A stretch of DNA of 63,538 bases, filler included, from Folioceros fuciformis (Eukaryota), in the NCBI GenBank assembly GCA_049999805.1. It is 9 parts of 9 records of this genome, joined end to end, with 100 filler letters (N's around TTAATTAATTAA, not from the genome) between each part and the next. Parts side by side here need not be neighbours in the genome. Positions count along the whole stretch, not along the records: positions 28,356 to 38,606 come from JBNGIO010001114.1; 8 more parts are not named here. One strand, given 5' to 3'. A program made the translations under genes and the position numbers. A model generated the notes under the pieces. The model did no database searches. It saw nothing but the letters and a program-made list of their open reading frames with translations, and had not been told where the DNA came from. Shown here piece after piece: positions 5,690 to 44,190 of this stretch; positions within the stretch are counted from its first letter, which is position 1, and each line of letters begins with the position of its first letter.

Positions 5690-8600
5690 ATGACCATTCC
5701 CTTCGACGCGGGTTCTCCGCCTGCAGGCTCCAGCCTCAAGGATGGAAGCGCCCATCTCGCAATGACCCATTTCTACCAGACATTTGACCATATATTCCAA
5801 TCCGCTGCCGAGCAAGACTCCCCTCTCGACTCCGCCACGCTGCTCCAACCACCGGGCTCGGGCATGATCACCTTGGATTTCAATACTGTGGGCCAAGGGA
5901 CGGACCTGCTCCACTCCCACTTTCAACTGCTGCAGGAGGACCACCCGCCGCACAAGCAGGTGCAGCAGCAGGAAGACCAAGAGGAGGAAGACCTGGAGAA
6001 GAAGGAGAAGGAGGTGGAGCTGGAGCCCGAGCTGGAGCTGGAGCTGGAGCTGGAGCCCGATATTGGGCTGGAACGCCACTCCTCCAAGCCGCAGCCCGTT
6101 TACAACACCAGGATTGGAGCCGCTCTGCAGCGTAACATCACTGCCTGGTTAGTAGTACCCACTCCCACTCCCTGTCGTGGGCCGCGTGGGGCGGCATTGT
6201 CTGCTGCTGCCATGTCTCGTTTTCCTCCTTGTCGTGTCATGGGGCCACAGGCGCCTGCGCGGGATTGGGTCTGTGACTATGAAATTCAAATTTTCTTGGG
6301 CCGGTCGGATTGCTTGGGCTGATTGCCTTGCCCTCCCCCCGGTGGAATGCAGGTGCGAGGCTACTGGCCTGCCCACCAGCATCACGCTCTATGTGGGAGA
6401 TCGTGTCTTCAAGCTTCACAAGGTATGGCTGTACACACATGCAGTGTGTTGCGTGATGCAGCGCCCATGTGGTGCCACATGGGGTGGCGGATGACGGCAA
6501 GACGCTCATTTGTGGGACGCTTGTGTGCGTGCAGTATCCGCTCGTGTCCAAGAGCGGCTACCTCAAGCGGATGCTGGCGGAATCCAAGGAGCTGCACCTG
6601 CCCGCTGACTGCCCGGGGGGAAGCGACGTGCTGGAGCTGGCGCTCAACTTCTGCTACGGCTCCACCATCCTCATGGACCCCTCCAACGTCGCCGCGCTCA
6701 GGTGCGCCGCCGAGTTCCTGGAGATGACCAACCAGTACGGCCGAGGGAACCTGTGCGAGCGCAGCGACGTCTACCTCACGCAGGTGGCGTTGCAGAGCTG
6801 GGAGGACACCGTCATGGTGCTGCTGCAGTGCCACTCGCAGGCCCTCTTGCCCATGGCCGACCACCTGCGCATCGTCTCCCGCTGCGTGCGCGCGCTCGCC
6901 CGCATGGCCGCCCTGGAGCTCATGGATCCTGCGGAGCGTGAGCGTGAGCGGGAGCAGGAGCAGGAGCAGGAACGGGAGCGGCAGCGGAGCAGCAGCAGGG
7001 GTAGTGGCAGTGGCAGTGGCAGTGGCAACCAGTTTTGGCGGGACTTCGGGGCCAGCAAGCGCATGGCTATGGCCGCCTCCTGCTGCTCCCGGGACTGGTG
7101 GGTCAAGGATCTCCTGTGCCTGCCCTTCGGCCTCTTCGAGCGCGTCGTGGCTGCTATGCGGGAGCAGGGCATGGAGGAGCACCACGTCACCCAGGTCGTG
7201 ATCAAGTACGCCGAGAAGCACGTGTTCCAGGCTATGGATAGGGAGTCTACGGACGACGCTGGGATTGTGCCGCAGCTTAAGCGCGGCTTGGTAGAGGGGA
7301 CCGTCAGGTTGTTGCCTCCTGCTGCTGTCCCTGGTTCTGCTGCGGAGGAGGAGGAGGCGGGAGAGGAGGATGAAGAGTGTGGTGGTCGCGGGCTTGGGGA
7401 TTTGGTACCGGTGGGCTTTTTGTTTGCTCTGCTGCGCTGTGCACTGGCGTGTGAGGTGCACCCGAGGTGCCTGGCGCAGCTGGAGAGGATGATTGCTGCT
7501 CAGCTGGAATGCGCCACCATCAATGACTACCTCCTGCCGTGCAAGGCTGCTGGGGCCTTCCAGCAGACCAGTGTGGCCGCTGCGTCTGAGCTCAAGAGCA
7601 TGCACCGCATTCTGGGTCTCTTCCTCTCCCGGTGGCAGCCCCGTCACCGCCACCTGCACCAGCACCAGTACCAGATTCAGCTCATGCAACAGCATGGACC
7701 TGGGCAGAGGGCTCTCATGAAGGTGGCCAAGGTTTGGGATCAGTACTTGGGGGAGATCGGTGCTGATGCTGGGCTCACTGCTGGAAGGTTTCTGGAGCTG
7801 GCCGAGGTCATTCCTGCCTCTGCTCGCTCCAGCCATGATCTGCTGTACAAGGCCATTCATGTTTTCCTCAAGGTAGGCAACCATGGTGAGGCATTCGGTG
7901 CAACTTGGTGGTGTTGGGGAGTGTGTGGGTTATGGGCAGTGGCTGGTTTGGGAGACTGCTTGGGATCTTGATGGGCTGTGGAGATAGCAGTTCAATGCCG
8001 CAACGCAGTTCGCTGTGCATTGCATGATGCATTTGGTGGTGTTGGGTTGCTCTGCGCATTGTGATGAAGGCACAACAGTGTGAGTGACGGGTGGAGGTGC
8101 GCGCATTGAACTCCTGCAGGCACACCCCAGGACCACAGAGGAGGAGAGGTCGAACATGTGCCGCATGCTCAACTGCCAGCGATTGTCCCAGGAGATGTGT
8201 TCCCACGCAGTGCAGAACGAGCTGATGCCGCTGCGAATGCTGGTGCAAGCCATGTTTCTGCAGCAGCTGCAGACGCGGAACACGCTGTGCGAGCATCTGC
8301 AGAGCGTTTCCGCGTCTGGGAGGCTGGACAGCAGGGTGGTCGGGCTGGCCACTGCGTCCTTCCGCAAGAGCAACGTGGCGCAGCAGCTGCAGCAGGCGAT
8401 GCAGCAGGATGCGCAGGAGGAGGAGGAGCACGAGGAGGAGGTTGCTGCCCATGCTGCTAACAATGCATCCATGGCATCTCCGGGGCCTCCTCAGGAATGG
8501 AGGGTGTTGCCGCACCAACAGGCGGCTCTGCTGAAGGCGGATTACGAGGCCACGTACTCCAGGCTCCGGAATCTGGAGGAGGAGCTGGCCCGTATGCGGC

Positions 8601-9136
8601 ACAACCTGGAGGCGGAGACGGGCAGTCAGTGCGGGCAATGGCCGGAGCAAGGGCATCAGCGGCAGGAAAGTAGCGACACACAGTGCAGGAGTAGTAGCGG
8701 TAGGGATCTGTACCCTGGTGTTGGAAAGTCTGGTAGGATGTCCAAGAAGGAAGTTCAAGGTCAGGGCGGAAGTGGTAACGGTAATGGCAGCAATAGCAAT
8801 AGTAGCAGTGGGTGCCTGGGACACAGCGGCCTGGCTCTCAGCTTCTCCAGGACGCTGCACCGGCTGGGCCTGACAGGAGGAGGATCCTTCTGGAAATCCA
8901 GCAAGAGCAAGAAGAAGAGCAGCAACAGCTCCAGGCCCGAGCTTGACAACAATGCAGGAGCAGGTCCAGCAGCAGCAGCGCCTTCTGTAGGATCTCCGGA
9001 GTGGGTTCCAACGTCGTCGTCTTCCCTGTCCCAGCTTGGCGCGAGGAGCAGCTCGATGCGGTACTCCTCGACATCCACTGGCTTTGGGTCTTCAACGACC
9101 AGGCCTCGCAGCAGGCGCACCAACTCCATCGCTTGA
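5690..9136 (+). CDS. NPH3/RPT2-like (NRL) BTB/POZ + NPH3-domain protein; exons ~5690-6147, 6353-6422, 6535-7872, 8120-9136
   Basis: BTB motifs VFKLHK/YPLVSKSG/PGGSDVLELALNFCYG/AALRCAAEFLEMT. NPH3 motifs WWVKDL, HDLLYKAIHVFLK-AHP, LNCQRLSQEMCSHAVQNELMPLR. C-terminal coiled coil. GT-AG boundaries join in frame, including the short ...LHK exon typical of NRL genes. Start codon is a best guess. Confidence 0.9.
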
Positions 9137-11822: not shown

Positions 11823-12140
11823 ACCAAGATGAAAGCCGAATCGAAGGGCTACGTAAGCGGCCCCACTAGCAGCGATTTATGTGTGTAGACTGGCTCATGC
11901 CACTTTTTGTTTCACCTCGCCAAGCTTTCCAACACTTCCAGCGAAAGCATCACAGCAGCAGCAGCAAACAGGGAGACTCGTTCCATTGCTTTCGTCAGCC
12001 TTCTTCCTCCTCCTTCTTGCTGCTGCTGCTGCCGTGGGAGTGCAATTGCGGGAGCGCCCATCGTTATCGTCGTCGCCATCGCCATCGCCACCGGCTTGCT
12101 GTTGTTGCCATTTTGGATAGGATCGCCAAGATCGCGCTTT

Positions 12141-14688
12141 ATGAAGCTCGGGGCTGGGACAGCTACGGCCGGCCGCACCACGCCATCGCCACCAGCAGCA
12201 ATTGCAACCGCGGGAGCAACAGGGGGAGGAAGAGGAGGAGGTCCGGGAGGACTGGCGTCACCCAGGGTGGTGGCGTTGCGGCTCCTGCGACTCTCGCACG
12301 ATTATGGCGTCCGCTCTCTCGGCCGCTGGCATCAGGATGTTGCCGCTCTTTCAGCCTGCTGGGATCAGCACACAAGCACGAGCAAGGGCCGGGACAAAGG
12401 CCTGTATCCCTGCCTCGCAACAGGACGTCGCTCCCGCGCCTTATCTTCTTTCCAACCGCGCTGCCTGAACAATGCTGTGGACCAGGCAGCCTCTCCGCGC
12501 AATGAGGACGACCTGCTCCGCTCCGAGCTCCTCTTCGCGCAGGCCGGGGTGGCCACGCTCGCGGACGGGCAGACGGAACAGGTCGTGAACTCCACATTGT
12601 TGCAGCTCTCGGAGCGGGAGCGGGAGCGAGAAAGGAAGCGGGACGCGAGCGTTGTCTCGCCGGATCTCAAGCTCGTGCCGGATCATGCCGAAAGCGAGCT
12701 GGAGAAAGAGGCCTGGGAGCTGCTGCGGGCTTCCGTTGTGTCCTACTGCGGCAGCCCCGTGGGAACCCTGGCGGCATGTGATCCCAACGATGCAAGCCCG
12801 CTCAATTATGATCAGGTCTTTATCCGGGACTTTGTGCCGTCCGCCATCGCCTTTCTGCTCAAGGGAGAGCATGACATTGTCAGGAACTTCATTCTGCATA
12901 CACTCCAATTGCAGGTCAGCATCTCGCAGCCATTCTTGTTCCTCTTCTTCCCATGCTTTTCGGCCGTCAATTTGCGTCCTTTGCTGAGCCGGTGAGGGAT
13001 TTGTGGTGGAGCAGAGCTGGGAGAAGACGGTAGACTGCTACACTCCTGGCCAAGGCTTGATGCCAGCCAGTTTTAAGGTTCGGACTGTGCCTCTGGAGGG
13101 TGGCGATCCGGATGCCACCGAAGAAGTGTTGGATCCCGACTTCGGGGAGGCTGCTATCGGCAGAGTGGCACCAGTCGACTCAGGTAGGTTCCTATTCCGT
13201 GCTTCCTTGCTTCGCATGCTGCCTTTCCTCGGCCTTGAGACTCCTCTCACTGAGAACTTCATGCCTCCTGGATTTATCAGGTTTATGGTGGATTATCCTT
13301 CTTAGGGCTTATGGCAGGAGCACTGGAGATAAATCGTTGCAGGATCGGGTTGACGTCCAGACGGGCATTAAGATGATCCTCAAGCTCTGCTTAGCGGATG
13401 GTTTTGACATGTTCCCCACCTTGCTGGTCACGGATGGATCATGCATGATTGACAGGCGGATGGGCATTCACGGCCACCCTCTGGAAATTCAGGTACCCTT
13501 ATCTTGGAGCCGAACTTCCTCCACATGCTGATCCGTAATTCTGTGATCGAAACTCTTCTCATTCACTGATATGTTCTCTGATCATATGCGAGCAGGCCCT
13601 ATTTTATTCTGCCCTTCGCTGTGCACGTGAAATGCTTGTTCCTGAGGATGGTGCAATTGAATTGATACGGGCCCTCAACAGTCGCCTCAGCGCCTTGTCA
13701 TTTCACATCAGGGAGTACTACTGGGTAGACATGAGGAAACTGAATGAGATCTACCGATACAAAACAGAGGAGTACTCCTACGATGCAGTGAACAAATTCA
13801 ACATCTATCCAGAGCAGGTTTCTCCCTGGTTGGTGGAATGGATGCCTGAGCAAGGAGGATACCTAATCGGCAACCTGCAGCCTGCCCACATGGATTTTCG
13901 AGTTTTCTCGCTGGGAAACCTGTGGTCGATAGTTGGCTCCCTTGCAACCCAAGAGCAAGCAGAAGCCATACTTGACTTATTTGAAGCCAGATGGACAGAT
14001 TTTGTGGGCAATATGCCACTCAAGATCTGTTTCCCTGCTTTTGAGGCGGAAGAGTGGCGGATTATCACCGGCAGTGATCCCAAAAATACGTGAGTTTCTT
14101 GACAGAGCAGTCTTTGCCTTTTGCTTAGTAGGTCATGTTCCCCTTATCTGTTCATCTCTCTTACGTAACGGATGTTGTTCTATTGCACACAGCCCTTGGT
14201 CCTACCACAACGGTGGCTCCTGGCCCACGCTCCTCTGGCAGGTAAATTTCCAGTCCTTGAGAATTTCCCAGGTCTGTGAAGAGGGTGTGTGTGCATACGG
14301 TAGTAACAGTGAAAGCTGGAAGGTGGTGTACTCAAACGAATCTGTTTGGGGTCTTCTGTTGCAGTTCACTGTGGCCTGCATCAAAATGAACCGGCCAGAG
14401 CTTGCCCAAAGGGCCGTTGACGTTGCGGAGAAGAGGATCTCTAGAGATCGGTGGCCTGAATATTACGACACTCGAACTGCCAGGTTCATTGGGAAGCAGG
14501 CCCGGTTGTATCAAACTTGGAGCATTGCAGGCTATCTAGTCGCAAAGCTGTTGCTGGCTAACCCACAAGCAGCTCAGATCCTTACTTGTGAGGAGGATAT
14601 TGCCCTACTTGAAGCAACCACCTGCCTGTTGGAAGCGAATCCTCGAAAGAAGAGGGGCAAGAAGGTGCCCAAACCCGTCATCGTGTAA
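12141..14688 (+). CDS. Alkaline/neutral invertase (GH100), organelle-type; exons ~12141-12914, 13015-13183, 13281-13492, 13596-14089, 14193-14241, 14365-14688
   Basis: [91 protein letters not shown]. All introns GT-AG and in frame. Long N-terminal extension is consistent with a transit peptide. Start codon uncertain. Confidence 0.95.
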
Positions 14689-26890: not shown

Positions 26891-29521
26891 TCCACTCTCC
26901 TTTCCGCGGTATTCAAAATCTACATATTTTTTGTAGATATGAACCATTAGAGAGCCTCAATTGGATTAAAAAGCCACGGGAGAGGCACCATGCCCCTCCC
27001 TTCCCTTCTCCCTCCACGCTTCAGCTTTGTGAGACATCTTCCAAAAAATTTGTCAGGAAATCATGGCGAGAACCCACCGATCTAGCACCCGGCGCCCTCG
27101 CCACCTTGAGGTACGTTCGCGTAGACCAGCTCGCTCAGGAGCTCACCATCGATCCACACTGTACGGTCAAAGCTCCGCACCAAGATGGGTGCAACGAGCT
27201 GTAGAAACCTTGACCAAGAACCCTAATTTGGACATTTGCAACAAGCAAACCAAACACAGATGTTTGGCAGGCCTCAATCCTCACCAGGGCTGTGACGGCA
27301 GGCCATGGCGTGCCTCACCCTCATCTAATCTGCTCCCTCCCGATACCTGCAAATGCCATATTCGCAAATTTGCAGAAGAAGAGGGTGCAGAAGGCAGGAG
27401 GCACGCATAGCCTGCCCAGGGGCACCCCTTTTGAAGCCATATCTAAGCAAAATTGGTTAAGATCTAAGGAGGAATTGAGTGCATATGCCGGATTGCAGCA
27501 CGACGGCCAATTCACAGCAAATTTCGATCCAAAATTGGGCAGCTCCAAAGCAGATTTACAACCGGAGGAGATGCTTGGGCCTCGCGGATCTTCACCCGCA
27601 GCCGATCAACATCGCAATCTACCGCAAGCGCTGCATGATCAGCGCGCCATCGCGGAGGTCGGACCGCCCACAAAGCGACGCGCGGGCGGGCGGGCACTCG
27701 TGAAGCGATGCCCAGGCCGAAACGACAACTTAAGTTGTCATTTTGGAGGCGAGACATTGCCCTACCCGTGAAACGACAAGTTAAGTTGCCGTTTTGGTGT
27801 TGAACCGATTTGGGCCTCCCCAACCGGTGTGAAAGCGGCTTTTTCGGGCACCGGTTCCGAACCGGTTCTCCCTAGCGCCGTTTCACACGAGCATTTGGAC
27901 CCTGGGAGTTTTGAACCAACACTAGTATATGTGCAAGTGAAGATTGAGCCAACTTTGCCTATCCTGCAATTGGAATCTTTGGCTTTTGCGGATCAAACTT
28001 CTCTTCTTTTGGGATTAACTAAAGCACACAACTCAATGTTTGGTGGACCTAGTTTTTTGCTTTCATGGTATAGCAAAATCGGAGGTGGATAGCTTGCAAG
28101 TTCCTGACTAGTCGGACATTGAGTGGTCCTGAGCACTGTGGAGGCAAAACCCCGGGCACTGATTGCCGACGGGTTCCACCTTTAGTGGCCACACTTATCC
28201 CACTGTCGTTGAGACATTGGGTTTCGTTCCCACGAAGGAGCGATGGGGTTCCTTGNNNNNNNNNNNNNNNNNNNNNNNNNNNNNNNNNNNNNNNNNNNNT
28301 TAATTAATTAANNNNNNNNNNNNNNNNNNNNNNNNNNNNNNNNNNNNNNNNNNNNATCCCTCGTGACATCGTGTCTGAAGCACATTTTCAACTTACCCTT
28401 CCACTTGTTCATCATAGTGAAATTTTGCTCCAGGTTGAGAAAATCTCTCAGCAAATGCTGTTGTACCCGAGCTCTCTACATGATAGGTGTAGTTAAAGCC
28501 TTGGACCGAAAGATCCGTTGAGGCATCAGAGCAAGGAAAACAGCCATGAATATGGCTGGGAGGGCAGTGTACCTGGCTAGCACCTGCCGGTTTAAAGTTG
28601 AGGCACCGCTGGCGCTGAGGGCCTGCTTACCGGGAATATATGTACTTGGCAATTGGAACTGAAGGTTTGATCTGCATCAGATTGACGTCTGTCAGTTGAT
28701 CTACATCAATAGTGATCCTCACATGCTCGAAGATAAATAAGTGGGGCCGGTTTCACGTGTCATCGTGCACAGAAACACTTTTTCTGTGTTTCAAAGCTTC
28801 AATGGCCAGCTATGGAGAAGGTATCAATATGTGATGCTAAGATACATGGGGAGAAGGCACGTACCAGGACTGTGATTCTGGACTTCAAGAGGGACCACCA
28901 GCATGCAGTAAGCAATTGATGCAGTACGCACTTCTCGTAAGCCTCCGCGAAGTCCATCTTGGGCGCATACCGAGCTGCCGATAGGAGATCATACGTTTGG
29001 GGCAACAGTGGACACTTGATCCCCACCCTAAGATTGTGTGAGACATGGAGAACTCGGTTGCGGAGAGACTTGCGTCCGACGTGCTGGGTTCGTGCCTCCC
29101 CAGCCTCATCAAACCGCGGATCAGTGCCTCCCCAGCTCGACCAACCAGCGGACACCCTCCGCTGGGCACCCCCTGCCACAGCTGGAAACTCAATCCTGCA
29201 AGCACATCCCTGCTTACATGGGATCTGGGCTAAATTCGAGGCCTGCAACCCTGATTCCATCTCCTGCAGTTGCCCATCGCTCACAGGTGAGCTCGTCCGA
29301 CACCGTGACCCTGCCAAATTGCAAGCCCCCGCTCGAGGCAGGCGCCGCCCAATTCTGATATCTTATTTAGCAGTTCGATGGGTATTATCAACCATCCATG
29401 TCCATGTCTCACTTTGGACAGGGATGCAGGTAAGCAAGTTCATTACCATCCCCCCCCCCCCTCTCCCCGGAAAGTAACATTCCCTGGCACAGAAACTTGA
29501 GCCCTGGGCGCTTCTTCATCT

Positions 29522-32500
29522 TCAGGGTCGACCCTTACAACTACAAGAACCAGCAGCAAATCGATGCACACGGTACCCATCCCTTACAACAATGTTTCTC
29601 TGTTCAAGCCTTGACATGACCTCCGTGGAACTGTGGCAGTCACTGCACATGCGTAGATTCTTCGTTACTACCAGAGGTGTCCCACTCGGAGTGTTCAAGA
29701 GACCAAACGCCAGAGCTAGCTTTTCAGCATGCCCACAAAGCGCATCTTCCTTTTCCTTCTCACACATTGGCTTCAACACCAACTTGGTGTGAGGTATGTG
29801 GCCTCCTTCCTGATTCAAGCGTGCATTCGTGCTCTGTGCCTTGACCGCAACACCCTCCCTCATTTCTCCCACCATAAACGTATGTACCTCCTTGTTCACC
29901 TCAATACTTGCCATTGCTGGTTTCTTGTTAGCTCCTGCTGCCATTCTCTGTCTTTCAATCCTGTCTACATCGGTCCACCTACCTGCATCTGCATAGGCAT
30001 TGGCCATGAGCACATGCGCAGATGCATTTTGAGGGTCAAGCTTAACAATGTTTTCAAAACACCGTATCGCCCTCTCTACATCCCCGTGAGTTTTGCAAGC
30101 ATTTAACAAGGAAGTCAAGCCCACAAGATTATTTTGACCCTCATGCAATACAAGCACTTTCTCTGCCTCATCTAAATGGCCAGCACGCCCAAGAAGATCA
30201 ATCATGCTACTGCAATGCTCAACAGTAGGTTTGATGCCATGCAGTTCAGTCATGGAATCAAAGTGCTTGCGACCCTCTTGGACCAGTCCCTCATGACTGC
30301 ATGATACTAGAAGGCAAGTGAAAGTAGCACAATCAGGCTGAATACCAGCAACTAACATCTCCTCAAAACAAGTCAGTGCTTTGTGCCCGTCATCATTAGC
30401 ACCATACCCACATATCAGGGCATTCCAAGTCACCACATCCTTTGTGGACAAGCTGTCAAAAACCTGGCGTGCAGCTTCCAGTTCACCACACTTAGCATAC
30501 ATATCCACCAAGCCGTTGCCCACCAGTACGGCATCCAGCAGTCCTCTTTTGACAATCTGTGAGTGCAGCTGTCTGCCCTTCTGCAAGGCACCAGTGATCC
30601 CACAGGCCTTCAGAAGGCAAGCAAAAGTCACATAGTTAGCCATAATCAGACCCTCCTGCTCCATTTGTGCATACACAAAAAGAGCTTCTTGGCCGAGTCC
30701 TTGCTGTGCATACCCAGCTATCAGGGCATTCCACGTCACCACATCCTTTGTTGTCAAGCTGTCAAAAACCTGGCGTGCATCTTTCAGCTCACCACATTTT
30801 GCATACATGTCCACCAGGGAGTTACCCAACACTACGTTATCCAGCAGTCCTCTCTGAACAATCTGTGAGTGCAGCTGCCTGCCCGTCTGTAAGCCACCAA
30901 TGCTTGCACAGGCCTTCAGAAGGCAAGCAAATGTAACGTGATCCGGCAAAATCAGGCCCTCCTGCTCCATTTGTCCATACAAAGAAAGAGCCTCTTGGCC
31001 AAGTCCCTGCTGTGCCAACCCAGCTATCAGGGCATTCCAAGTCACCACATCCTTTGTCGACAAGCTGTCAAAAACCTGGCGTGCATCTTCCAGTTCACCA
31101 CACTTTGCATACATGTCAACCAGGGAGTTACCCACCACTACATTACCCAGCAGCCCTCTTTTAACAATCTGTGAGTGCAGCTGCCTGCCCTTTTGCAAGG
31201 CACCGGTGACTGCACAGGCCTTCAGAAGGCAAGCAAAAGTAACATAGTTTGCCAGAACCAAGCCCTCCTGCTCCATTTGTCCATACAGAACAAGAACCTC
31301 TTGGCCGAGCGCTTGCTCAGCATACCCAGCTATCAGGGTGGTCCATGACACCACATCTTTTGTGTTCATGCTATCAAAGACTTGGCGTGCAGCTTCCAGT
31401 TCACCACATTTCACATACATGTCCATCAGGGAGTTGCCCACCACAATGTTATCCAGCAGTTCTCTTTCAACAATCTGTGAGTGCAGCTGCCTGCCCCTCT
31501 GTAATGCTCCAGTGCTTGCACAGGCCTTGAGAAGGCAAGCAAAAGTAACATGGTTAGCAAAAGCCAGGCCCTCCTGCTCCATTTGTTCATACACAAGAAG
31601 TGCCTCATGTCCGAGCCCTTGGTCGGCAAACGCAGCTATCAGGGAGGTCCATGTCACCACATCCTTCGTGGCCATGTTGTCAAACACGTGGCGTGCATCC
31701 TTCAGTTGGCCGCATTTTGCATACATGTCCACCAGGCAGTTGCCCAAAATGACGTTATCCACCAGCAGTCCTCTTTCGACAATCTGTGAGTGCAGCTGCC
31801 TGCCCTTGTGTAAGGCACCAGTGCTTGCACAGGCCTTCAGAAGGCAAACAAAAGTAACATGGTTGGCCGAAATCAGGCTCTCCTGCTCCATTTGTGCATA
31901 CAGAACAAGTACCTCTTGGCCGAGAGCAGCTTTTGCGGCATAACCGGCTATGAGGGTGGTCCATGTCACCACATCCTTCGTGTTCATGCTGTCAAAAACA
32001 TGGTGAGCGATTTGCAGTTCACCACATTTTACATACATATCTACCAGGCAGTTGCCCACCATAACGTTACCCAGCAGTCCTCTTTTTACAATCTGTGAAT
32101 GCAGATGCCTGCCCTTCTGTAAGGCACCCGTGCTCGCACACGCTTTAAGAAGGTAAGCAAAAGTAACATGATTAGCCAAACTGAGCCCCTCTTGCTCCAT
32201 TTGGTCATACACAACAAGTGCCTCCTGTCCGAGCCCTTGCTGGTAACATCCAGCAACCAGCACCGTCCACGTCACCACATCCTTGGTGGCCATGTTGTCA
32301 AAAACCTGGCGTGCACTTCTCAGCTCGCCACACTTGACATACATGTCCATCAAGCAGTTACCCACAACCAAGTCAGGAGTAATGCGACTCTGCACCACAT
32401 CACAGTGCACTTTTCTGCCAGATTCCAAGTCGGCTGCTAATGCACAAGCTTGAAGGGCGGCTACAAATACGTGAGCATCCGCCGTAACTCCTGACCTGCA

Positions 32501-33367
32501 CATGTCGTGGTACAGTTGTATGGCCTCTGTAGGTTTCCCACGCTTAGCGCAAGCCGAAATTATGGAAGACCACAAGAAGGCATCCGGCCTGACCACCCTG
32601 GTGAAAACATCCATGGCCTCCTCCAGCCTACCTCCAGATGCATACATGCGCAAAATATGGTTGCCCAAGTATGCATTCGAGTCGAGCCCAAGTTCGACAC
32701 AGAGGTCATGAACCCGTCTCCCGACAACGAAATCCTTCCTAGCTGTACACAATTTCAGCACAGTGCAAAGGATAGACTGAGAAACAGCAGAGTCTGTCTG
32801 CGCCAGAGATTCCAGGGCTTCGACGGCCTCAGACAGCCTCCCCTGCTGACATAACGTGCTCACGGTCACAGCCGTAATGACGCCCATTTCCGATCCTGAC
32901 CATCTACCAGATTCAGGCCTACCCGGACAGCTGAGCTCAAAAGGAAAGGCACCACCAACCATCTGCATGTCCAAGGCAACGAGCTGCTCATCAACCCAAG
33001 CTGGCTTAAACACGCTGTTTAACCACAGCACCTCGCCAGACCACTTACACCGGAAGTCAGGCGAACGCGAGCTCTTCTTGACTCGTCTGTTGTCCCACCA
33101 CATGGTAGGGTCCAGAAAAAACTGTTGCCACAATTGCTCCTGCTCCTGGCGACGACCATCGCTGGAAAAGCCATGCCCACCCACACATTTCATCGGATGT
33201 GGAATTGCTGGGCTCATCACACTGCAGCACCTGGAGGCTTGGTCCATACCACGAGGGGTTGACTCCATACAACGAGATGAGCCGGAGCTGCTAGAAGAAT
33301 CCCTGTACATGCACCGTTCTGTTGGATCCACAACGGATCCGATTGCCATAATGTGTCCATCATTCAT
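29522..33367 (-). CDS. PLS-class PPR protein with N-terminal PDF motif, ~26 PPR motifs (L-S, 7x PLS, P2-L2-S2), E1/E2 and a DYW:KP (GRP-ending) domain; candidate organellar U-to-C RNA editing factor
   Basis: Intact 1281-aa ORF with regular P/L/S triplets. KKPAMASIEV stands in place of the PG box, followed by HAEKLA...CSDCH and a terminus CSCKGRP*. The true N-terminus may lie further upstream. Confidence 0.95.
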   Translation of the reverse strand: MNDGHIMAIGSVVDPTERCMYRDSSSSSGSSRCMESTPRGMDQASRCCSVMSPAIPHPMKCVGGHGFSSDGRRQEQEQLWQQFFLDPTMWWDNRRVKKSSRSPDFRCKWSGEVLWLNSVFKPAWVDEQLVALDMQMVGGAFPFELSCPGRPESGRWSGSEMGVITAVTVSTLCQQGRLSEAVEALESLAQTDSAVSQSILCTVLKLCTARKDFVVGRRVHDLCVELGLDSNAYLGNHILRMYASGGRLEEAMDVFTRVVRPDAFLWSSIISACAKRGKPTEAIQLYHDMCRSGVTADAHVFVAALQACALAADLESGRKVHCDVVQSRITPDLVVGNCLMDMYVKCGELRSARQVFDNMATKDVVTWTVLVAGCYQQGLGQEALVVYDQMEQEGLSLANHVTFAYLLKACASTGALQKGRHLHSQIVKRGLLGNVMVGNCLVDMYVKCGELQIAHHVFDSMNTKDVVTWTTLIAGYAAKAALGQEVLVLYAQMEQESLISANHVTFVCLLKACASTGALHKGRQLHSQIVERGLLVDNVILGNCLVDMYAKCGQLKDARHVFDNMATKDVVTWTSLIAAFADQGLGHEALLVYEQMEQEGLAFANHVTFACLLKACASTGALQRGRQLHSQIVERELLDNIVVGNSLMDMYVKCGELEAARQVFDSMNTKDVVSWTTLIAGYAEQALGQEVLVLYGQMEQEGLVLANYVTFACLLKACAVTGALQKGRQLHSQIVKRGLLGNVVVGNSLVDMYAKCGELEDARQVFDSLSTKDVVTWNALIAGLAQQGLGQEALSLYGQMEQEGLILPDHVTFACLLKACASIGGLQTGRQLHSQIVQRGLLDNVVLGNSLVDMYAKCGELKDARQVFDSLTTKDVVTWNALIAGYAQQGLGQEALFVYAQMEQEGLIMANYVTFACLLKACGITGALQKGRQLHSQIVKRGLLDAVLVGNGLVDMYAKCGELEAARQVFDSLSTKDVVTWNALICGYGANDDGHKALTCFEEMLVAGIQPDCATFTCLLVSCSHEGLVQEGRKHFDSMTELHGIKPTVEHCSSMIDLLGRAGHLDEAEKVLVLHEGQNNLVGLTSLLNACKTHGDVERAIRCFENIVKLDPQNASAHVLMANAYADAGRWTDVDRIERQRMAAGANKKPAMASIEVNKEVHTFMVGEMREGVAVKAQSTNARLNQEGGHIPHTKLVLKPMCEKEKEDALCGHAEKLALAFGLLNTPSGTPLVVTKNLRMCSDCHSSTEVMSRLEQRNIVVRDGYRVHRFAAGSCSCKGRP

Positions 33368-39830: not shown

Positions 39831-42049
39831 GGCTGCATGTCATCCTGCCAACATTGTTCCCTAGTGCGCTGTGTACGGAGCATGCTTTTTTGTGCTCTGG
39901 TACACGGCTGTCAATCACTTCCTTGGAAGCTGCTGGATGGCAGGGTATGGCATTGCGTGTGGACAACCATGACGTAGCATGACATAACATAAGCTGAGCT
40001 AAGCCAAGCCAAGCCAAGCTAAGGGAAACAAACAACCATAAACATATCCAATCCAATGCAATGCAATCCCATCCCCAGAGACAATGGAGGAGGAGGAGGA
40101 GGAGGAGAAGAAGCTGCTGAAGCAGAACAGAAGAAGAAGAAGAAGCAAGGACACAAAGGAGGAGGAGCGAGGAGGAGAAGAAGCTGCTGAATCAAAACAG
40201 AAGAAGAAGAAGAAGAAGAAGCAAGGACAAAGAAAGGAGGAGGAGCAAGGACGAACCACCATCCAAGAGAAGTGAAGACAAGAGCAGAGCAAAGCATAGC
40301 ATAGCATAGAAGAGAAGAGAAGCGAAGATAAGAGAGGAAAAGAGAAGCTAAGGTGGTGCCATATGGGATGGGCCTCCCTCCCTGTCGTGTCGCCAGGCTG
40401 TTGTGGATTTTGGCGGGATCCGTCTCTCCTTTAACATTCTATTTCTTTATTCAATCTTAATAATAATAATAATAGTATATTATTTTTATTCTGAGTTCAG
40501 TAAATTTAATACGTGAAATGTAATCCCAATTCACTTTGGTCTCCAGGACAATCAAAGTACATATCTATGAGAGGTGAGCCAATGTCCTATTATTGCTTCT
40601 TTTTTTCCCTTTTTTTAGTTAAAAGCTTGATATTATTATTTTTCTCTCTTTCTATTGTTATTATTAATGACATATTCTTGGTTGGAGCCAGAGGAGAGGA
40701 GAGGAGAGGAGAGGAGAGAGTTTTCATGTCCACACACTCCATGTATGTATATATAAAAAGAAATACCGCATCAGGGTTCTTGTCACATGATAGATTTTTG
40801 TACAACATCATCAAAAAAATCATGATTAAACCGTTCCAGCAGCTACCATGACACGCATCATGTGTCGTGTGCACATGTTCTTTTACTTCCTTCAGGGTTT
40901 TTCAAGTACCCAGTACCAGTACCAGTACAGCAACAATTGCAGCAGTAGCAGGTTATCGTTGGACTTTAACGTTCTCTATCAAAGTTGGTTAGTTAGTTAG
41001 TTAGATAGTTAGTTATAGTCCCGGTTGGTTGCTCATGAATACTCAACCCACTGGATGGAGCTAGTCAACTAGGTACCAATACTACCTTCCATGCCTCACT
41101 CACTCACTCACTCAATATCTTATCTTGTTATTCCGTTCCATTGGTTCCTTTCAACTGGCTTGGCTTGGCTCCATTCCGTTCCGTTCCCTTCTTGATTATG
41201 AAATAATTGGTTCGAAAATGATGTGATACATTGTTTCAAAAGGGCTTAACATAATGCGTACATATGTTCCAAGATGACAACTTTGCACAAGAACTCCAAA
41301 CCCCTTGCTTCCCCTCAACAAGACACTTGAAGTATGTACTCTACAATAACTTCTCATGTTATGTTCAATCCTTTATGAAAATCTTATGGCTGATCCATCA
41401 GCCACCATGTGGTGTGNNNNNNNNNNNNNNNNNNNNNNNNNNNNNNNNNNNNNNNNNNNNTTAATTAATTAANNNNNNNNNNNNNNNNNNNNNNNNNNNN
41501 NNNNNNNNNNNNNNNNTTCTTCATTCATGAACTCTACGTTTACAAGATATAATTTTATCCATAATCTGACATGAGGAGAATTACAAGACTCATGTCAATC
41601 TCTATAATTTTTATTGGTTCTTTTAACCATAATATGAAAAAAAATTGGTGCTACATATTGCATATCTATCTACATCCTGTTTTTGTTTAAATACAGAAAA
41701 AATATGATATAAAATAAGTCAAATAAAAATTAAAAATCATATAGTTTTCTCATTTTAATATAAATAGTATACACATAACAATAGGACTTTGATTTCCAGT
41801 GACTGTCAAATTTTGCTTTGTAACAGGTATATAGTAAAGGTCCAGTGTAAGATGTTCTCATTCCACACAGAAAGACTTGGATTCAGACTCCCTGGTGCTT
41901 TCAGTGATAGCCGATCCATGTAGAGTATGAGTGTGCTCAGGGGTAGTCCCCAAAGCAAGTTCACCCACAAGAAGCAAAAAAAACTTCCACACTGGCTTGG
42001 TCTCGGTCTCCTCAGGGTGGACCTGAGTCCTCTCGACATCCCATCCACC

Positions 42050-44190
42050 TACAGGCCTCTGCATAGGCATTGGCCATGGACACCCACGAGGACACCAGCA
42101 GCGGGTCCAGCCTAACAAGTCTTTGAAAACCACTAGATGGACTACATCCCCGTGACATTTGCAGGCATTCCAACAAAGCATTCAGTCCCATTAAATCATG
42201 CATTCAAAGCATTCAACATCACTTTGGCCCTCGCACGATAGGAGCCTGCTCTCAGCGTCATCAAGTAGCCTGCACGCCCTAAAAGATCAACCATGCAGGT
42301 GTAATGCTCGAGAGTAGGTTTGATGCCATGCTGCTCAGACACTGAGTTAAAGTGCTTGCGACCCTCCTGGGCCAGTCCTTCGGTACCGCGTGCTACTAGA
42401 AGGCAAATAAAAGTTAGCACCATCAGGTTGAATACCGGCAACTATCATCTCCTCAAAACAAGAGAGTGCTCTGCGACCATCATCACAAGTACCATACTCA
42501 GACATCAGAGCCGTCCGTGTCACCCCATTTTGCATTCACGTCCCCCAGGAAGTTGCGCAGTATTACTTTGCCCTGCAGTCCTCGTTCCATAATATGAGAG
42601 TGTAGCTACCTGCTCTTCTGTAAGGTACCAGTGTTTCCACAGGCCTTCAGAAGGCAAGGAAAAGTAACATGGTCAGCTACCATCAAGGGCTCGTCCTTCA
42701 TTTGTGTCTGAGCGCTGAGCGCCTCATGTCTGAGCCCCTTGCTTGACTTACCCATCAATCAGCGCCGCCCATGTTTACCACATTCCTAGAAGCCATGCTG
42801 TCAAAAACCCGGCGTGAATCTGTTAGTTCACCATATTTTGCATACATGTTCACCAGACAGGTGCCCGCGAGTATGTCATCCAGCAGTCCTCTTTGACAAT
42901 CGGCGAGTGCAGCTGCCTGCCCTTCTGTATGTAATGCATCAGTGCTTCCACAGGTCTTGAGAAGACAAGGAAAAGCAACACGGTCAGCCACAAATGAGGC
43001 CCTCTTCCTCCATTTATCCTGACAGAACAAGCGCCTCCTGGCTGAGTCCTTGCTGTGCAAACCCACATGTCACGGTATTCCACGTCACCACATTCTTTGT
43101 GGGCACACTGTCAAAAACCTTCTCAGGCATACTGCAGTTCACCACACGTTGCATACTATACATTTCTACCAGGCAGTTGCCGACGACCAAGCTGGCGGGA
43201 ATGCCACTGCGCAACACAAACACAGTGCCCTTTTCTGCCAGATTCCAAGTCGGTGGCAAATGCACCAGCGTGAAGGGCGGGTACAAAGACGTGACCATTC
43301 GCCTTCACTCCTGACGTATGCATCTCATGGCAGAGTTGTATGGCCTCAAGGGGTTTCAGTTGTATGGCCACACGTATAACCAGATGGTTTGCCTACCCTG
43401 GTGAACACATCCATGGCCTCCTCTGGTCTACCTCCACACGCATCCATCCATGTGCAAGTCATGGTCCCCCACGTATGCATCCTACTCATACCCAACATTA
43501 ACACAGAGGTCATGAACTTGAACTCCCCAGAACCAAGTCCTTCTTAGCTGTAAACAGTTTCGCCACAGTGCAGAGCAGAGACTGAAGAGAAGAAGCAAAT
43601 TCTGCTTGCGCCAGAGATTCCAGAGCTCCAACTGCCGCAGAAACTTCACGTGCTGACATGACGTGTTCAGGTTACAGCCGTAACGAAGCCAACTTCCAAT
43701 CCTGCACGCCTGTCAGGTTCAGGCTTATCCGCAGACCTGGACTCGGAAGGAGGGCGCCACGACCGATCTGTAGCTCCAAGGAAACGGGCTACTCATCACT
43801 GTAAGCTGCCTTGAATATGCTGTTTAACTACACTACCTGCCCGGATTCCTTGCGACGGAAGTCAGGCGAATGGGTGCTATTTTTATCTCGTCTGGTATCT
43901 CACTACGTGGTCGAGTCCAGACACAGTTGTTGACGCAAGTGCTCCTGCTCCTGGCCACGACCATCGTTGGAAGACTCGTCCCAACCCACACATTATCTCG
44001 GAAGTGGAAGTGCTAAGCTCCTCAAACTTCAGCACCATGGAGGCTTCGTTTTCCAGGAGTTCTACCGTTAAGATGAGGTGAGCAGTAGCTCCTGATAGAA
44101 TCCCTGTAAACACATCGCTTCGCTGGTTCCACAGCGAATCCGATCGCCGTACTGTGGCCATCGTCCAGGACCCGCTATCGGAAGAAGCTG
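42050..44190 (-). pseudogene. Decayed paralog of the PDF-PLS-PPR gene (PDF, shortened PLS array, P2L2S2, E1, partial E2; no DYW visible)
   Basis: Colinear DNA similarity to ~30000-33390 (e.g. EGLAQEGRKHFNSV..HGIKPTLEHYTCMVDLLGRAG, ALSCFEEMIVAGIQPD, MANAYAEA), with many frameshifts and stops. Confidence 0.9.

Follow-up and report, generated by a model that had tools for sequence, protein, structure and literature searches.

The DYW:KP class of deaminase-like domains, described since 2020, is to our knowledge the sole means by which protein alone can bring about U-to-C conversion at specific RNA sites, and hornwort genomes hold many genes of its GRP type. DYW:KP domains occur in hornworts, lycophytes and ferns, lineages with U-to-C editing. 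They are recognized by KP in place of PG, a deletion of three to four residues, HAE and a variable tail, with xHP missing, a domain length of 132–133 residues, and Ala or Cys substituting for Ser in HxE (PMC11845758; PMC11332814). Hornwort DYW:KP domains fall into two subgroups, GRP and DRH (Gerke et al., 2020, cited in PMC9478123), the former defined by its GRP tail and by a Glu at the position whose Lys, in PG domains, hydrogen-bonds the DYW Asp (PMC9478123).

KP2 and KP3, consensus designs derived from GRP sequences, carry out U-to-C conversion in E. coli (about 26% and 22% respectively) and in human (HEK293T) cells, with no C-to-U conversion in either host, and changing HAE to HAA abolishes editing (PMC9478123). 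A third design, KP6, edits in both directions when expressed in human cells and shows C-to-U editing in vitro, and E64G, L113V, F133H or any change of Lys88 turns it into a C-to-U enzyme (PMC11845758; PMC11332814). Among KP6 point mutants, Gly64 and Val113 favoured C-to-U and Val119 favoured U-to-C, the first two states deriving from the KP consensus itself (PMC11845758). KP2, KP3 and KP6 all require Lys88 (PMC11845758), and a lysine Schiff-base crosslink model implicates a conserved lysine as nitrogen donor (PMC11332814). All three designs stay covalently bound to RNA in bacteria, and native KP factors have been considered possible suicide enzymes, whereas the U-to-C-edited RNAs of the fern Ceratopteris were described as free of protein crosslinks; the authors suggest that the reaction may be completed by a cofactor or by amino acids in their native configuration (PMC11332814). 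For natural KP proteins, activity was stated in February 2025 to be something that 'remains unknown' (PMC11845758), and a review of December 2025, in its available part, cites designer work alone for U-to-C activity. The original prediction for the locus described here held that KP-type domains have been reported to perform U-to-C editing, which has been shown for the consensus designs only, and that the chemistry and amino donor are poorly understood, a view now qualified by the Schiff-base model and the requirement for Lys88.

Results

Gene structure and genomic context

The window analysed is a 63,538-nucleotide stretch of Folioceros fuciformis DNA (assembly GCA_049999805.1) assembled from nine parts of nine records. 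Translation of its minus strand revealed a 3,846-nt ORF with no stops and no frameshifts inside:

29522–33367, minus strand: whole ORF, read as encoding a PPR protein of the PLS class that ends in a DYW:KP (GRP) domain; 1281 codons plus a TGA stop

The encoded protein carries near its N-terminus a conserved module, followed by nine PLS triplets, the E1 and E2 motifs and, at the C-terminus, a deaminase domain of the DYW family. Searches of Pfam matched PPR families at E values of 1e-120 or better, E_motif at 5e-13 and DYW_deaminase at 1.6e-31, and Pfam matches combined with manual segmentation placed the P-L-S triplets, P2-L2-S2, E1 and E2 ahead of the DYW domain, the last of them ending exactly at residue 1147. 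The ORF's last 134 codons and stop occupy 29522–29926 (minus strand), and the peptide that they encode begins KKPAMASIEVNKEVHTF and finishes CSCKGRP*. A chance frame or another genetic code was considered as well and dropped, the table 1 and table 11 readings being identical.

Other genes in the window, encoding NPH3, neutral invertase and GCFC, are plant nuclear genes, and a tblastn search at E of 0.1 or better found no second DYW domain within the window. A decayed PPR paralog lies on the same strand about 12 kb from the ORF in the window and provides an example of an unconstrained copy. To judge from its sequence, the ORF is an intact plant nuclear PLS-class PPR gene and an ordinary member of the described GRP class. 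An intact natural member of that class was what the original prediction had proposed, and the uninterrupted 1281-codon frame, together with the full set of KP and GRP traits detailed below, agrees with it; since GRP and DYW:KP domains are already in the literature, the ORF is a further example of a described class.

Sequence traits of the C-terminal domain

Traits were counted over 242 full-length DYW domains, 39 of which are of a short/HAE/M type and 175 of a long/HSE type. The features of the query domain are as follows:

29525–29926, minus strand: DYW:KP deaminase-like domain, assigned to the GRP subgroup; 134 residues, or 133 in KP numbering, which counts from the second Lys
29915–29923, minus strand: K-P-A at the PG-box position, from translation
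29723–29731, minus strand: H-A-E, comprising the zinc-binding His, class-typical Ala and catalytic Glu, with His and Glu unchanged in all 44 aligned domains
29660–29662, minus strand: Lys88 in KP numbering, the Lys required for U-to-C editing in KP2, KP3 and KP6 according to PMC11845758
29633–29647, minus strand: C-S-D-C-H, the CxxC zinc ligands and the next His, with Met before them (LRMC), from translation and alignment
29525–29533, minus strand: terminal G-R-P replacing D-Y-W, from translation

Translation thus bears out the individual traits that had first drawn attention to this domain, namely replacement of the PG box (by KPA), HAEKLA and not HSEKLA at the active site, an intact CxxCH (CSDCH) and an end in GRP instead of DYW. 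The KPA box is found in 21 of the 39 short/HAE/M domains, and PG in 137 of the 175 long/HSE ones. The shortened region without the usual HP is likewise present: the stretch from VH.F to the GH.P turn has 31 residues in the query against the usual 34 (34–35 in 195 of the 242 domains), and the HP within it, found in 136/175 long/HSE domains, is missing in the query as in all of the short/HAE/M type (0/39). LRMC stands in the GRP domain where LRVC is usual. The GRP tail is common to only five of the 242 domains, all in one clade; being the trait that defines the variant, its presence instead of Asp-Tyr-Trp gives no ground for excluding the domain from the DYW fold family. The query has Glu in a column where 214 of the 237 non-GRP domains have Lys, the five GRP-tailed rows reading E, E, E, T and Q. 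The Lys88 column, by comparison, is Lys in 240/242 domains, PG types included, and so does not discriminate between classes.

All 44 aligned domains agree at H66, E68, C94, C97, H98, H121, C128, C130 and K89 (P0002 numbering), and the second His/Cys cluster, formed by the His after CxxC, the His of H-x-F and the CxC, is complete (H98, H121, C128 and C130). This cluster is reportedly a structural zinc site in the OTP86 structure paper, which is also said to be the origin of the name 'gating region' that the original prediction had given to the shortened stretch. The same deletion is placed in the PG-box region in PMC11332814. Taken together, these traits support assignment of the domain to DYW:KP and to the hornwort GRP subgroup, for both of which it carries every defining sequence feature.

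Whether such traits also specify the direction of the reaction was considered at the positions that shift the balance in KP6, where the query has, by inferred numbering, Gly64, Val113 and Val119. The protein might be a C-to-U or dual editor in which KP traits mark ancestry and not reaction direction: KP6 does both and becomes a C-to-U enzyme through single substitutions (PMC11845758; PMC11332814), two of the states concerned, Gly64 and Val113, are those of the query, and every residue for canonical hydrolytic deamination is intact in it. Since one substitution is enough to switch KP6 from U-to-C to C-to-U or back, the direction of catalysis is not readable from sequence alone. The claim that this domain is a signature of reverse editing holds in so far as it concerns class membership, by traits and by tree, and not as to direction. 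Nonetheless, KP2 and KP3, which are GRP-based, gave U-to-C and no C-to-U editing (PMC9478123); Gly64 and Val113 are the KP consensus states (PMC11845758); and Lys88 is retained in the query, with HAE, Met92 and the deletion all in the KP state. We therefore regard a C-to-U or dual editor as unlikely and retain U-to-C as the preferred direction.

Fold and phylogeny

The domain alone matched Pfam PF14432 (DYW_deaminase) with 113.3 bits, over a cut-off of 24 (E 4.8e-33), and phmmer matched it to the solved DYW structures 9kfx (E 7e-35), 7w86 (2.9e-29) and 7o4e (4.2e-26), in alignments with a gap of 3–4 residues exactly at the shortened stretch. With such scores the match to the DYW family is not due to chance. 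An AF2 model of the domain had a mean pLDDT of 82, falling below 50 at residues 43–54, which are part of the stretch past the deletion; the best Foldseek matches of the model were 9kfx (TM 0.85, E 1.8e-14), 7o4e (TM 0.80) and 7w86 (TM 0.69). As modelled, the domain shows the DYW-domain fold. No DYW:KP structure was among the PDB matches from phmmer or Foldseek.

A maximum-likelihood tree was built from 90 DYW domains over 137 columns, with 200 bootstrap trees, support given as bootstrap/SH-aLRT and classes assigned by sequence traits. All five GRP-tailed rows, including the query, formed one clade (100/98; 100% of the 200 bootstrap trees), nested with DRH-type domains in a clade of 15 rows (98/84). 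All 39 KP-like rows fell in one 44-row clade, albeit with weak support (83/54). The query lies among the short-stretch HAE domains and apart from the canonical HSE...DYW domains, so that the phylogeny proposed as a check on the original prediction places it outside the canonical C-to-U domains and in the GRP clade. The nearest relative found is 74% identical to the query within the domain and 67% within the C-terminal 282 residues, and for the nearest named relatives, from ferns and lycophytes, identity is 53% or less. The closest GRP relative, P0003, is 58% identical overall to the ORF protein.

Compared with described systems, the query is most like the GRP subgroup and KP2/KP3, with which it shares KPA, the lack of xHP, HAE, LRMC, CxxCH, the GRP tail, Glu for the PG-domain Lys and a PLS-P2L2S2-E1-E2-DYW architecture; its P2 motif also resembles the KP3 row of Supplementary Fig. 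2 in PMC9478123, as far as that figure is legible. KP2 and KP3 are, however, consensus designs with three triplets and P2L2S2, whereas the query is a natural gene with nine PLS triplets and a conserved extra N-terminal module. The DRH subgroup and the fern and lycophyte DYW:KP domains (the basis of KP1, KP5 and KP6) have the deletion, HAE, Met92, Lys88 and clade in common with the query domain, to which they are 46–67% identical, but retain the Asp of DYW, their tails reading DRH, DMF or otherwise, and have kept Lys in the paired column. Canonical DYW:PG proteins (OTP86, 7o4e/7o4f; DYW1, 7w86; synthetic PPR-DYW, 9kfx) are alike in fold (TM 0.69–0.85), HxE, CxxC, the second His/Cys cluster and Lys at the Lys88 position. 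They differ by PG, by 3–4 extra residues (xHP among them), by HSE, by a residue before CxxC that is usually Val or Ile, and by an end in DYW, and they sit outside the clade of all 39 KP-like rows, though across the weak split noted above.

PPR repeat array

Between the N-terminal module and the deaminase-like domain, the repeats are arranged as follows:

32279–32884, minus strand: first two PLS triplets, divergent from the later ones; residues 162–363, by manual segmentation
30437–32278, minus strand: six self-similar P1-L1-S1 triplets with a 306-bp tandem unit; residues 364–977
29927–30436, minus strand: P2-L2-S2-E1-E2 motifs; residues 978–1147, by segmentation, with Pfam E_motif at residues 1094–1156

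TRF reported a period of 306 with 6.4 copies and 82% matches. The six units are 78–86% identical to one another in nucleotides and 71–82% in amino acids, and the first two triplets are 54–57% identical in nucleotides to the later units. This self-similar PLS array is one of the gene's more unusual points, the PDF-like N-terminal module described below being the other. The array is under purifying selection, with dN/dS of 0.19–0.43 (mean 0.27) at dS of 0.38–0.78 in pairwise comparisons of the six triplets.

These values bear on whether the gene might be a silent or decaying copy of a very large paralogous family, intact by virtue of youth and without an editing role. A very large family of look-alikes is evident from the 3,351 to 25,202 contigs per run that matched the ORF stretch at 90% likeness across four contig sets; one of these sets, guessed to be RNA, also spans flanking non-coding DNA, and thousands of paralogous contigs stack on the gene. 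A decayed paralog lies nearby, as noted above, and GRP proteins are under-represented in transcriptomes (PMC9478123). Against this, the 3,846-nt frame is uninterrupted, none of the invariant catalytic and zinc columns has been lost, P0003 shares the N-terminal module at an overall identity of 58%, and internal repeats that have diverged to dS of about 0.4–0.8 still show dN/dS of about 0.27. A silent copy thus seems to us quite unlikely, and the reading of the ORF as an editing factor is kept in what follows.

The PPR code reads nucleotides through position 5 and the last residue of P and S motifs. Applied to the P and S motifs of the ORF, it predicts the upstream element nnU GnU AnU AnU AnU AnU UnU YnU UnA, with the edited base about three nucleotides past it in the predicted target.

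N-terminal module

Upstream of the repeats lies the module shared with P0003, in alignment with which it is collinear:

32972–33151, minus strand: conserved N-terminal module, PDF-motif-like, WWDNR...PDF...LW...KPAWVDEQL; residues 73–132

P0262 carries three tandem copies of this module, each with PDF. The module appears to resemble in detail the PDF motif found in OSB proteins, which are plant proteins that bind single-stranded DNA, and we know of no PDF-type motif other than in these organellar DNA-binding proteins. The OSB motif is about 50 residues long, has a conserved Pro-Asp-Phe and occurs in one or several copies (PMC6963530), to which correspond the length of about 50–60 residues, the Pro-Asp-Phe, and the single copy in the ORF and three tandem copies in P0262. 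Unlike in OSB proteins, the module has no adjoining OB-fold in the ORF and is placed at the N-terminus of a PPR protein. With about 70 residues before the module, PPR motifs after it and no upstream OB-fold-like domain, the ORF product is not an OSB protein.

Searches with the module gave no Pfam match at E up to 10, no usable match in the ESM Atlas and, in the PDB, matches at chance level alone; among shorter proteins six candidates were compared and none scored, and no OSB protein appeared in the sequence searches. The strings 'WWDNR' and 'PDFKHK' are absent from the supplements of PMC13393729. That some natural hornwort PPR proteins of GRP type, and related ones lacking DYW, bear one to three N-terminal PDF-type motifs binding single-stranded nucleic acid, a combination that would be undescribed, is accordingly put forward as a tentative suggestion, to which we give less than even weight.

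Discussion

We consider it likely that the ORF encodes a nuclear PLS-class PPR RNA editing factor whose C-terminal domain, of the DYW:KP GRP subgroup, would act in the U-to-C direction. The protein would be imported into a plastid or mitochondrion, where its 27 PLS motifs with E1 and E2 would bind single-stranded RNA at one motif per nucleotide, and a uridine lying some four nucleotides beyond the S2 contact in the downstream direction would be placed in the His-Ala-Glu/Cys-x-x-Cys zinc site. Organelle targeting, target site, U-to-C direction and turnover are points that we only infer.

As to turnover, the protein might act stoichiometrically, binding or crosslinking RNA at a specific site as a suicide reactant and affecting the stability or translation of its target. 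The persistence of KP2, KP3 and KP6 on RNA in bacteria and the published suicide-enzyme idea are in keeping with this, whereas the U-to-C-edited RNAs of Ceratopteris were not protein-crosslinked (PMC11332814), and native systems therefore do release cytidine; the query sequence is itself silent on turnover. We hold a stoichiometric role to be very unlikely and prefer an editing factor that releases its product.

Nothing sets the ORF enzymatically apart from other such hornwort genes, and annotating it in a genome is routine. Nevertheless, because KP designs end as a covalent protein–RNA adduct in bacteria, an intact native GRP-type gene is a reasonable test object, and it would let the question of nitrogen donor and turnover be put to a natural protein. 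If the suggestion about the N-terminus is true, the PDF-type module, absent from the KP designs that stall at the crosslink, could add a nucleic-acid or partner contact to the native factor.

The C-terminal domain of the PPR ORF

Translation of 29522–29926 (minus strand) yielded 134 residues and a stop codon, beginning with KKPAMASIEVNKEVHTF and ending in CSCKGRP*, and this domain forms the 3′ end of an unbroken 1281-codon ORF in which Pfam identified the following:

29522–33367, minus strand: ORF, with PPR families at E 1e-120 or better
Residues 1094–1156: E motif, E 5e-13
Residues 1189–1279: DYW_deaminase (PF14432), E 1.6e-31

Alone, the domain scored 113.3 bits against PF14432 (cut-off 24), and phmmer matched it in the PDB to only three distinct DYW sequences:

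9kfx: synthetic PPR-DYW, E 7e-35
7w86: DYW1, E 2.9e-29
7o4e: OTP86, E 4.2e-26

In contrast to these solved domains of the canonical C-to-U (PG) type, which have ...SHP... at this site, the query is shorter by three or four residues directly after the VH.F strand. The features from which a DYW:KP, GRP-type domain had originally been predicted were each present where they had been placed in translation, Pfam and phmmer alignments, and that feature list is therefore wholly borne out.

An AlphaFold2 model of the domain, built from an input alignment of 44 rows, had a mean pLDDT of 82 and a pTM of 0.75, with values below 50 at residues 43–54, directly after the deletion. Its best Foldseek matches were 9kfx (TM 0.85), 7o4e/7o4f (0.77–0.80) and 7w86 (0.69), with bacterial DYW-like deaminases and other cytidine deaminases ranking far lower; no KP-type structure was among the PDB matches from phmmer or Foldseek. 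Invariant in 44/44 rows were His66, Glu68, Lys89, Cys94, Cys97, His98, His121, Cys128 and Cys130 (domain numbering from the first Lys).

KP traits and phylogeny

Relatives were collected in two sets, one with the last 282 residues as query (E at most 0.001, proteins of 704–2242 aa; best 120 of 168 relatives, from 1,706 candidates) and one comprising the best 150 of 2,383 representatives of any length whose domain match had an E of 0.001 or less. Among the former, the highest identity over the 282 residues was 67%, and the best named relatives were from ferns and lycophytes, at 53% or less. Across both sets 260 proteins had a domain match, near end-to-end in 242. Among these matches, 138/242 domains combined PG and HSE with a long stretch of at least 33 residues, 39/242, the query included, combined HAE and a Met preceding CxxC with a short stretch of at most 31, and the rest had mixed combinations. 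A KPA box was found in 21 of the 39, and HP occurred within the stretch in none of them versus 136/175 long/HSE domains. KP-like tails in these matches were DMF (8), GRP (5), DRH (5) and many singletons, PG-like ones DYW (110), DFW (29) and varied others. The column known in the literature as Lys88 was Lys in 240/242 and thus does not separate the two classes. Another column, with Lys in 214/237 non-GRP rows, had Glu in three of the five GRP rows, the query among them, and Thr and Gln in the other two.

Two database proteins among the best 150 of 2,383, P0123 and P0125, had two DYW-domain matches per chain, near full length and back to back in P0123 (463 aa); these may be true tandems, or assembly or gene-model artefacts.

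A tree of 90 domains, with classes defined by sequence traits rather than by named reference domains, was built from every row showing two or more KP traits (48) and a random sample of 42 of the 194 PG-like rows, the remaining 152 being omitted for tractability. In a careful IQ-TREE run on 137 columns, whose bootstrap was not fully settled (correlation 0.962), the five GRP-tailed rows formed a single clade (100/98; in 100% of 200 bootstrap trees), nested in a 15-row clade (98/84) whose other members were DRH-type and similar and included one long-branch HVE row labelled PG-like by trait score. When a canonical DYW row served as root, the 39 KP-like rows all fell inside one 44-row clade with weak support (83/54), its five non-KP-like rows being HAE or HVE variants; a quick tree agreed. 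The GRP and 44-row clades therefore place the domain apart from canonical C-to-U domains, the separation that the original prediction had proposed to check.

PPR array and predicted target

Manual segmentation, in which motif lengths summed exactly with no residue over, gave:

Residues 162–1080: nine PLS triplets, the last P2-L2-S2
Residues 1081–1114: E1
Residues 1115–1147: E2
Residues 1148–1281: DYW-family domain

Specificity residues (position 5 and last residue of P and S motifs)
First triplet: P AS, S ND
Second triplet: P SD, S ND
Third to sixth triplets: P TN, S ND
Seventh triplet: P ND, S ND
Eighth triplet: P NN, S ND
P2 and S2: ND, SN
E1: TN

In the PPR code, TN and SN specify A, SD specifies G, ND specifies U and NN specifies C or U. 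On this code, the element upstream of the edited base is predicted to be nnU GnU AnU AnU AnU AnU UnU YnU UnA.

Much of the array is a tandem repeat:

30437–32278, minus strand (residues 364–977): six self-similar P1-L1-S1 triplets in a 306-bp tandem array

The array has 6.4 copies with 82% matches at a period of 306 bp. Its specificity residues are near-uniform (TN or ND in P motifs, ND in all S motifs), so the predicted target is periodic and U-rich. Pairwise, the six triplets showed 78–86% nucleotide and 71–82% protein identity, with dS of 0.38–0.78 and dN/dS of 0.19–0.43 (mean 0.27), which speaks for constrained coding sequence and not a fresh neutral copy. P0003, the closest relative among the matches listed and likewise GRP-tailed, has 950 aa compared to 1281 here, the 331-residue difference corresponding to about three triplets; it was 58% identical over a 776-residue alignment including the C-terminal parts and 50% over one beginning at the N-terminal modules.

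N-terminal module

A further conserved segment precedes the PPR array:

32972–33151, minus strand (residues 73–132): N-terminal module with the words WWDNR, PDF, LW and KPAWVDEQL

Residues 58–117 of P0003 align collinearly with it, and P0262, a 1371-aa PLS protein without a DYW domain, has it three times in tandem (residues 33–290); a WWDNR-type word occurred in only 2/261 collected proteins. We take the module to resemble the PDF motif of OSB single-stranded-DNA-binding proteins. In the literature searched, a single paper contained both 'PDF motif' and 'pentatricopeptide', a review on the components of mitochondrial DNA replication.

Genomic surroundings

Other genes in the window were represented by:

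2–2014, 6469–9136 and 11907–14688, plus strand: ORF pieces with three matches, named in order GCFC + G-patch, NPH3 and alkaline/neutral invertase

Those to NPH3 and to invertase each extended over two or more ORFs, fitting genes with introns, and the three genes together identify plant nuclear DNA. A decayed PPR paralog (about 41800–43700, minus strand), ~12 kb along the window from the intact gene and on the same strand, consists of S, P, L, L2/S2 and E1 pieces in several frames with stops between; tblastn found no DYW remnant in it. At 28257–28356, ~1.2 kb past the stop codon of the intact gene along the window, two N runs flank TTAATTAATTAA, read as a gap with linker. The segment 28900–34000 matched 3,351 to 25,202 contigs at 90% likeness in single sequencing runs from three organisms, chiefly over the DYW and PLS parts, indicating that similar PPR genes form a very large family in those organisms.

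Relation to known DYW:KP proteins

PMC9478123 confines DYW:KP domains to hornworts, lycophytes and ferns, and names two hornwort variants, DRH and GRP, by their last three residues. By this statement on GRP, the present gene would be a hornwort one. GRP sequences, under-represented in transcriptomes, were the design source of KP2 and KP3; U-to-C editing in E. coli was ~26% for KP2, ~22% for KP3 and ~50% for KP6, and was lost on HAE-to-HAA or CxxC-to-AxxA mutation. It also describes a Lys of PG domains that bonds the Asp of DYW, replaced by Glu in GRP proteins. In PMC11845758, which sets out the class criteria, U-to-C activity needs Lys88, whose substitution gives C-to-U, a few substitutions in KP6 suffice to shift the balance to either reaction, and the activity of natural KP proteins is described as still unknown. 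The chemistry proposed in PMC11332814 is attack of an enzyme lysine on uridine C4; Glu and zinc-bound hydroxide would then convert the resulting Schiff base into cytidine. There, designs remain crosslinked to RNA in bacteria, fern RNAs carry no crosslink, and completion is suggested to come via native sequence, a cofactor or translation. The available part of a December 2025 review cites designer work only in support of U-to-C editing, and we found no later work on natural KP proteins in the literature searched, which lay largely outside subscription journals.

Sequence traits and the 90-domain tree uphold the class originally predicted, and the protein very probably belongs to the DYW:KP GRP class. 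It would probably act as a U-to-C editing factor, the direction of the reaction (U-to-C or C-to-U) being beyond what sequence alone can settle. Descriptions of the DYW:KP class go back to 2020, and the gene is very probably one further member.
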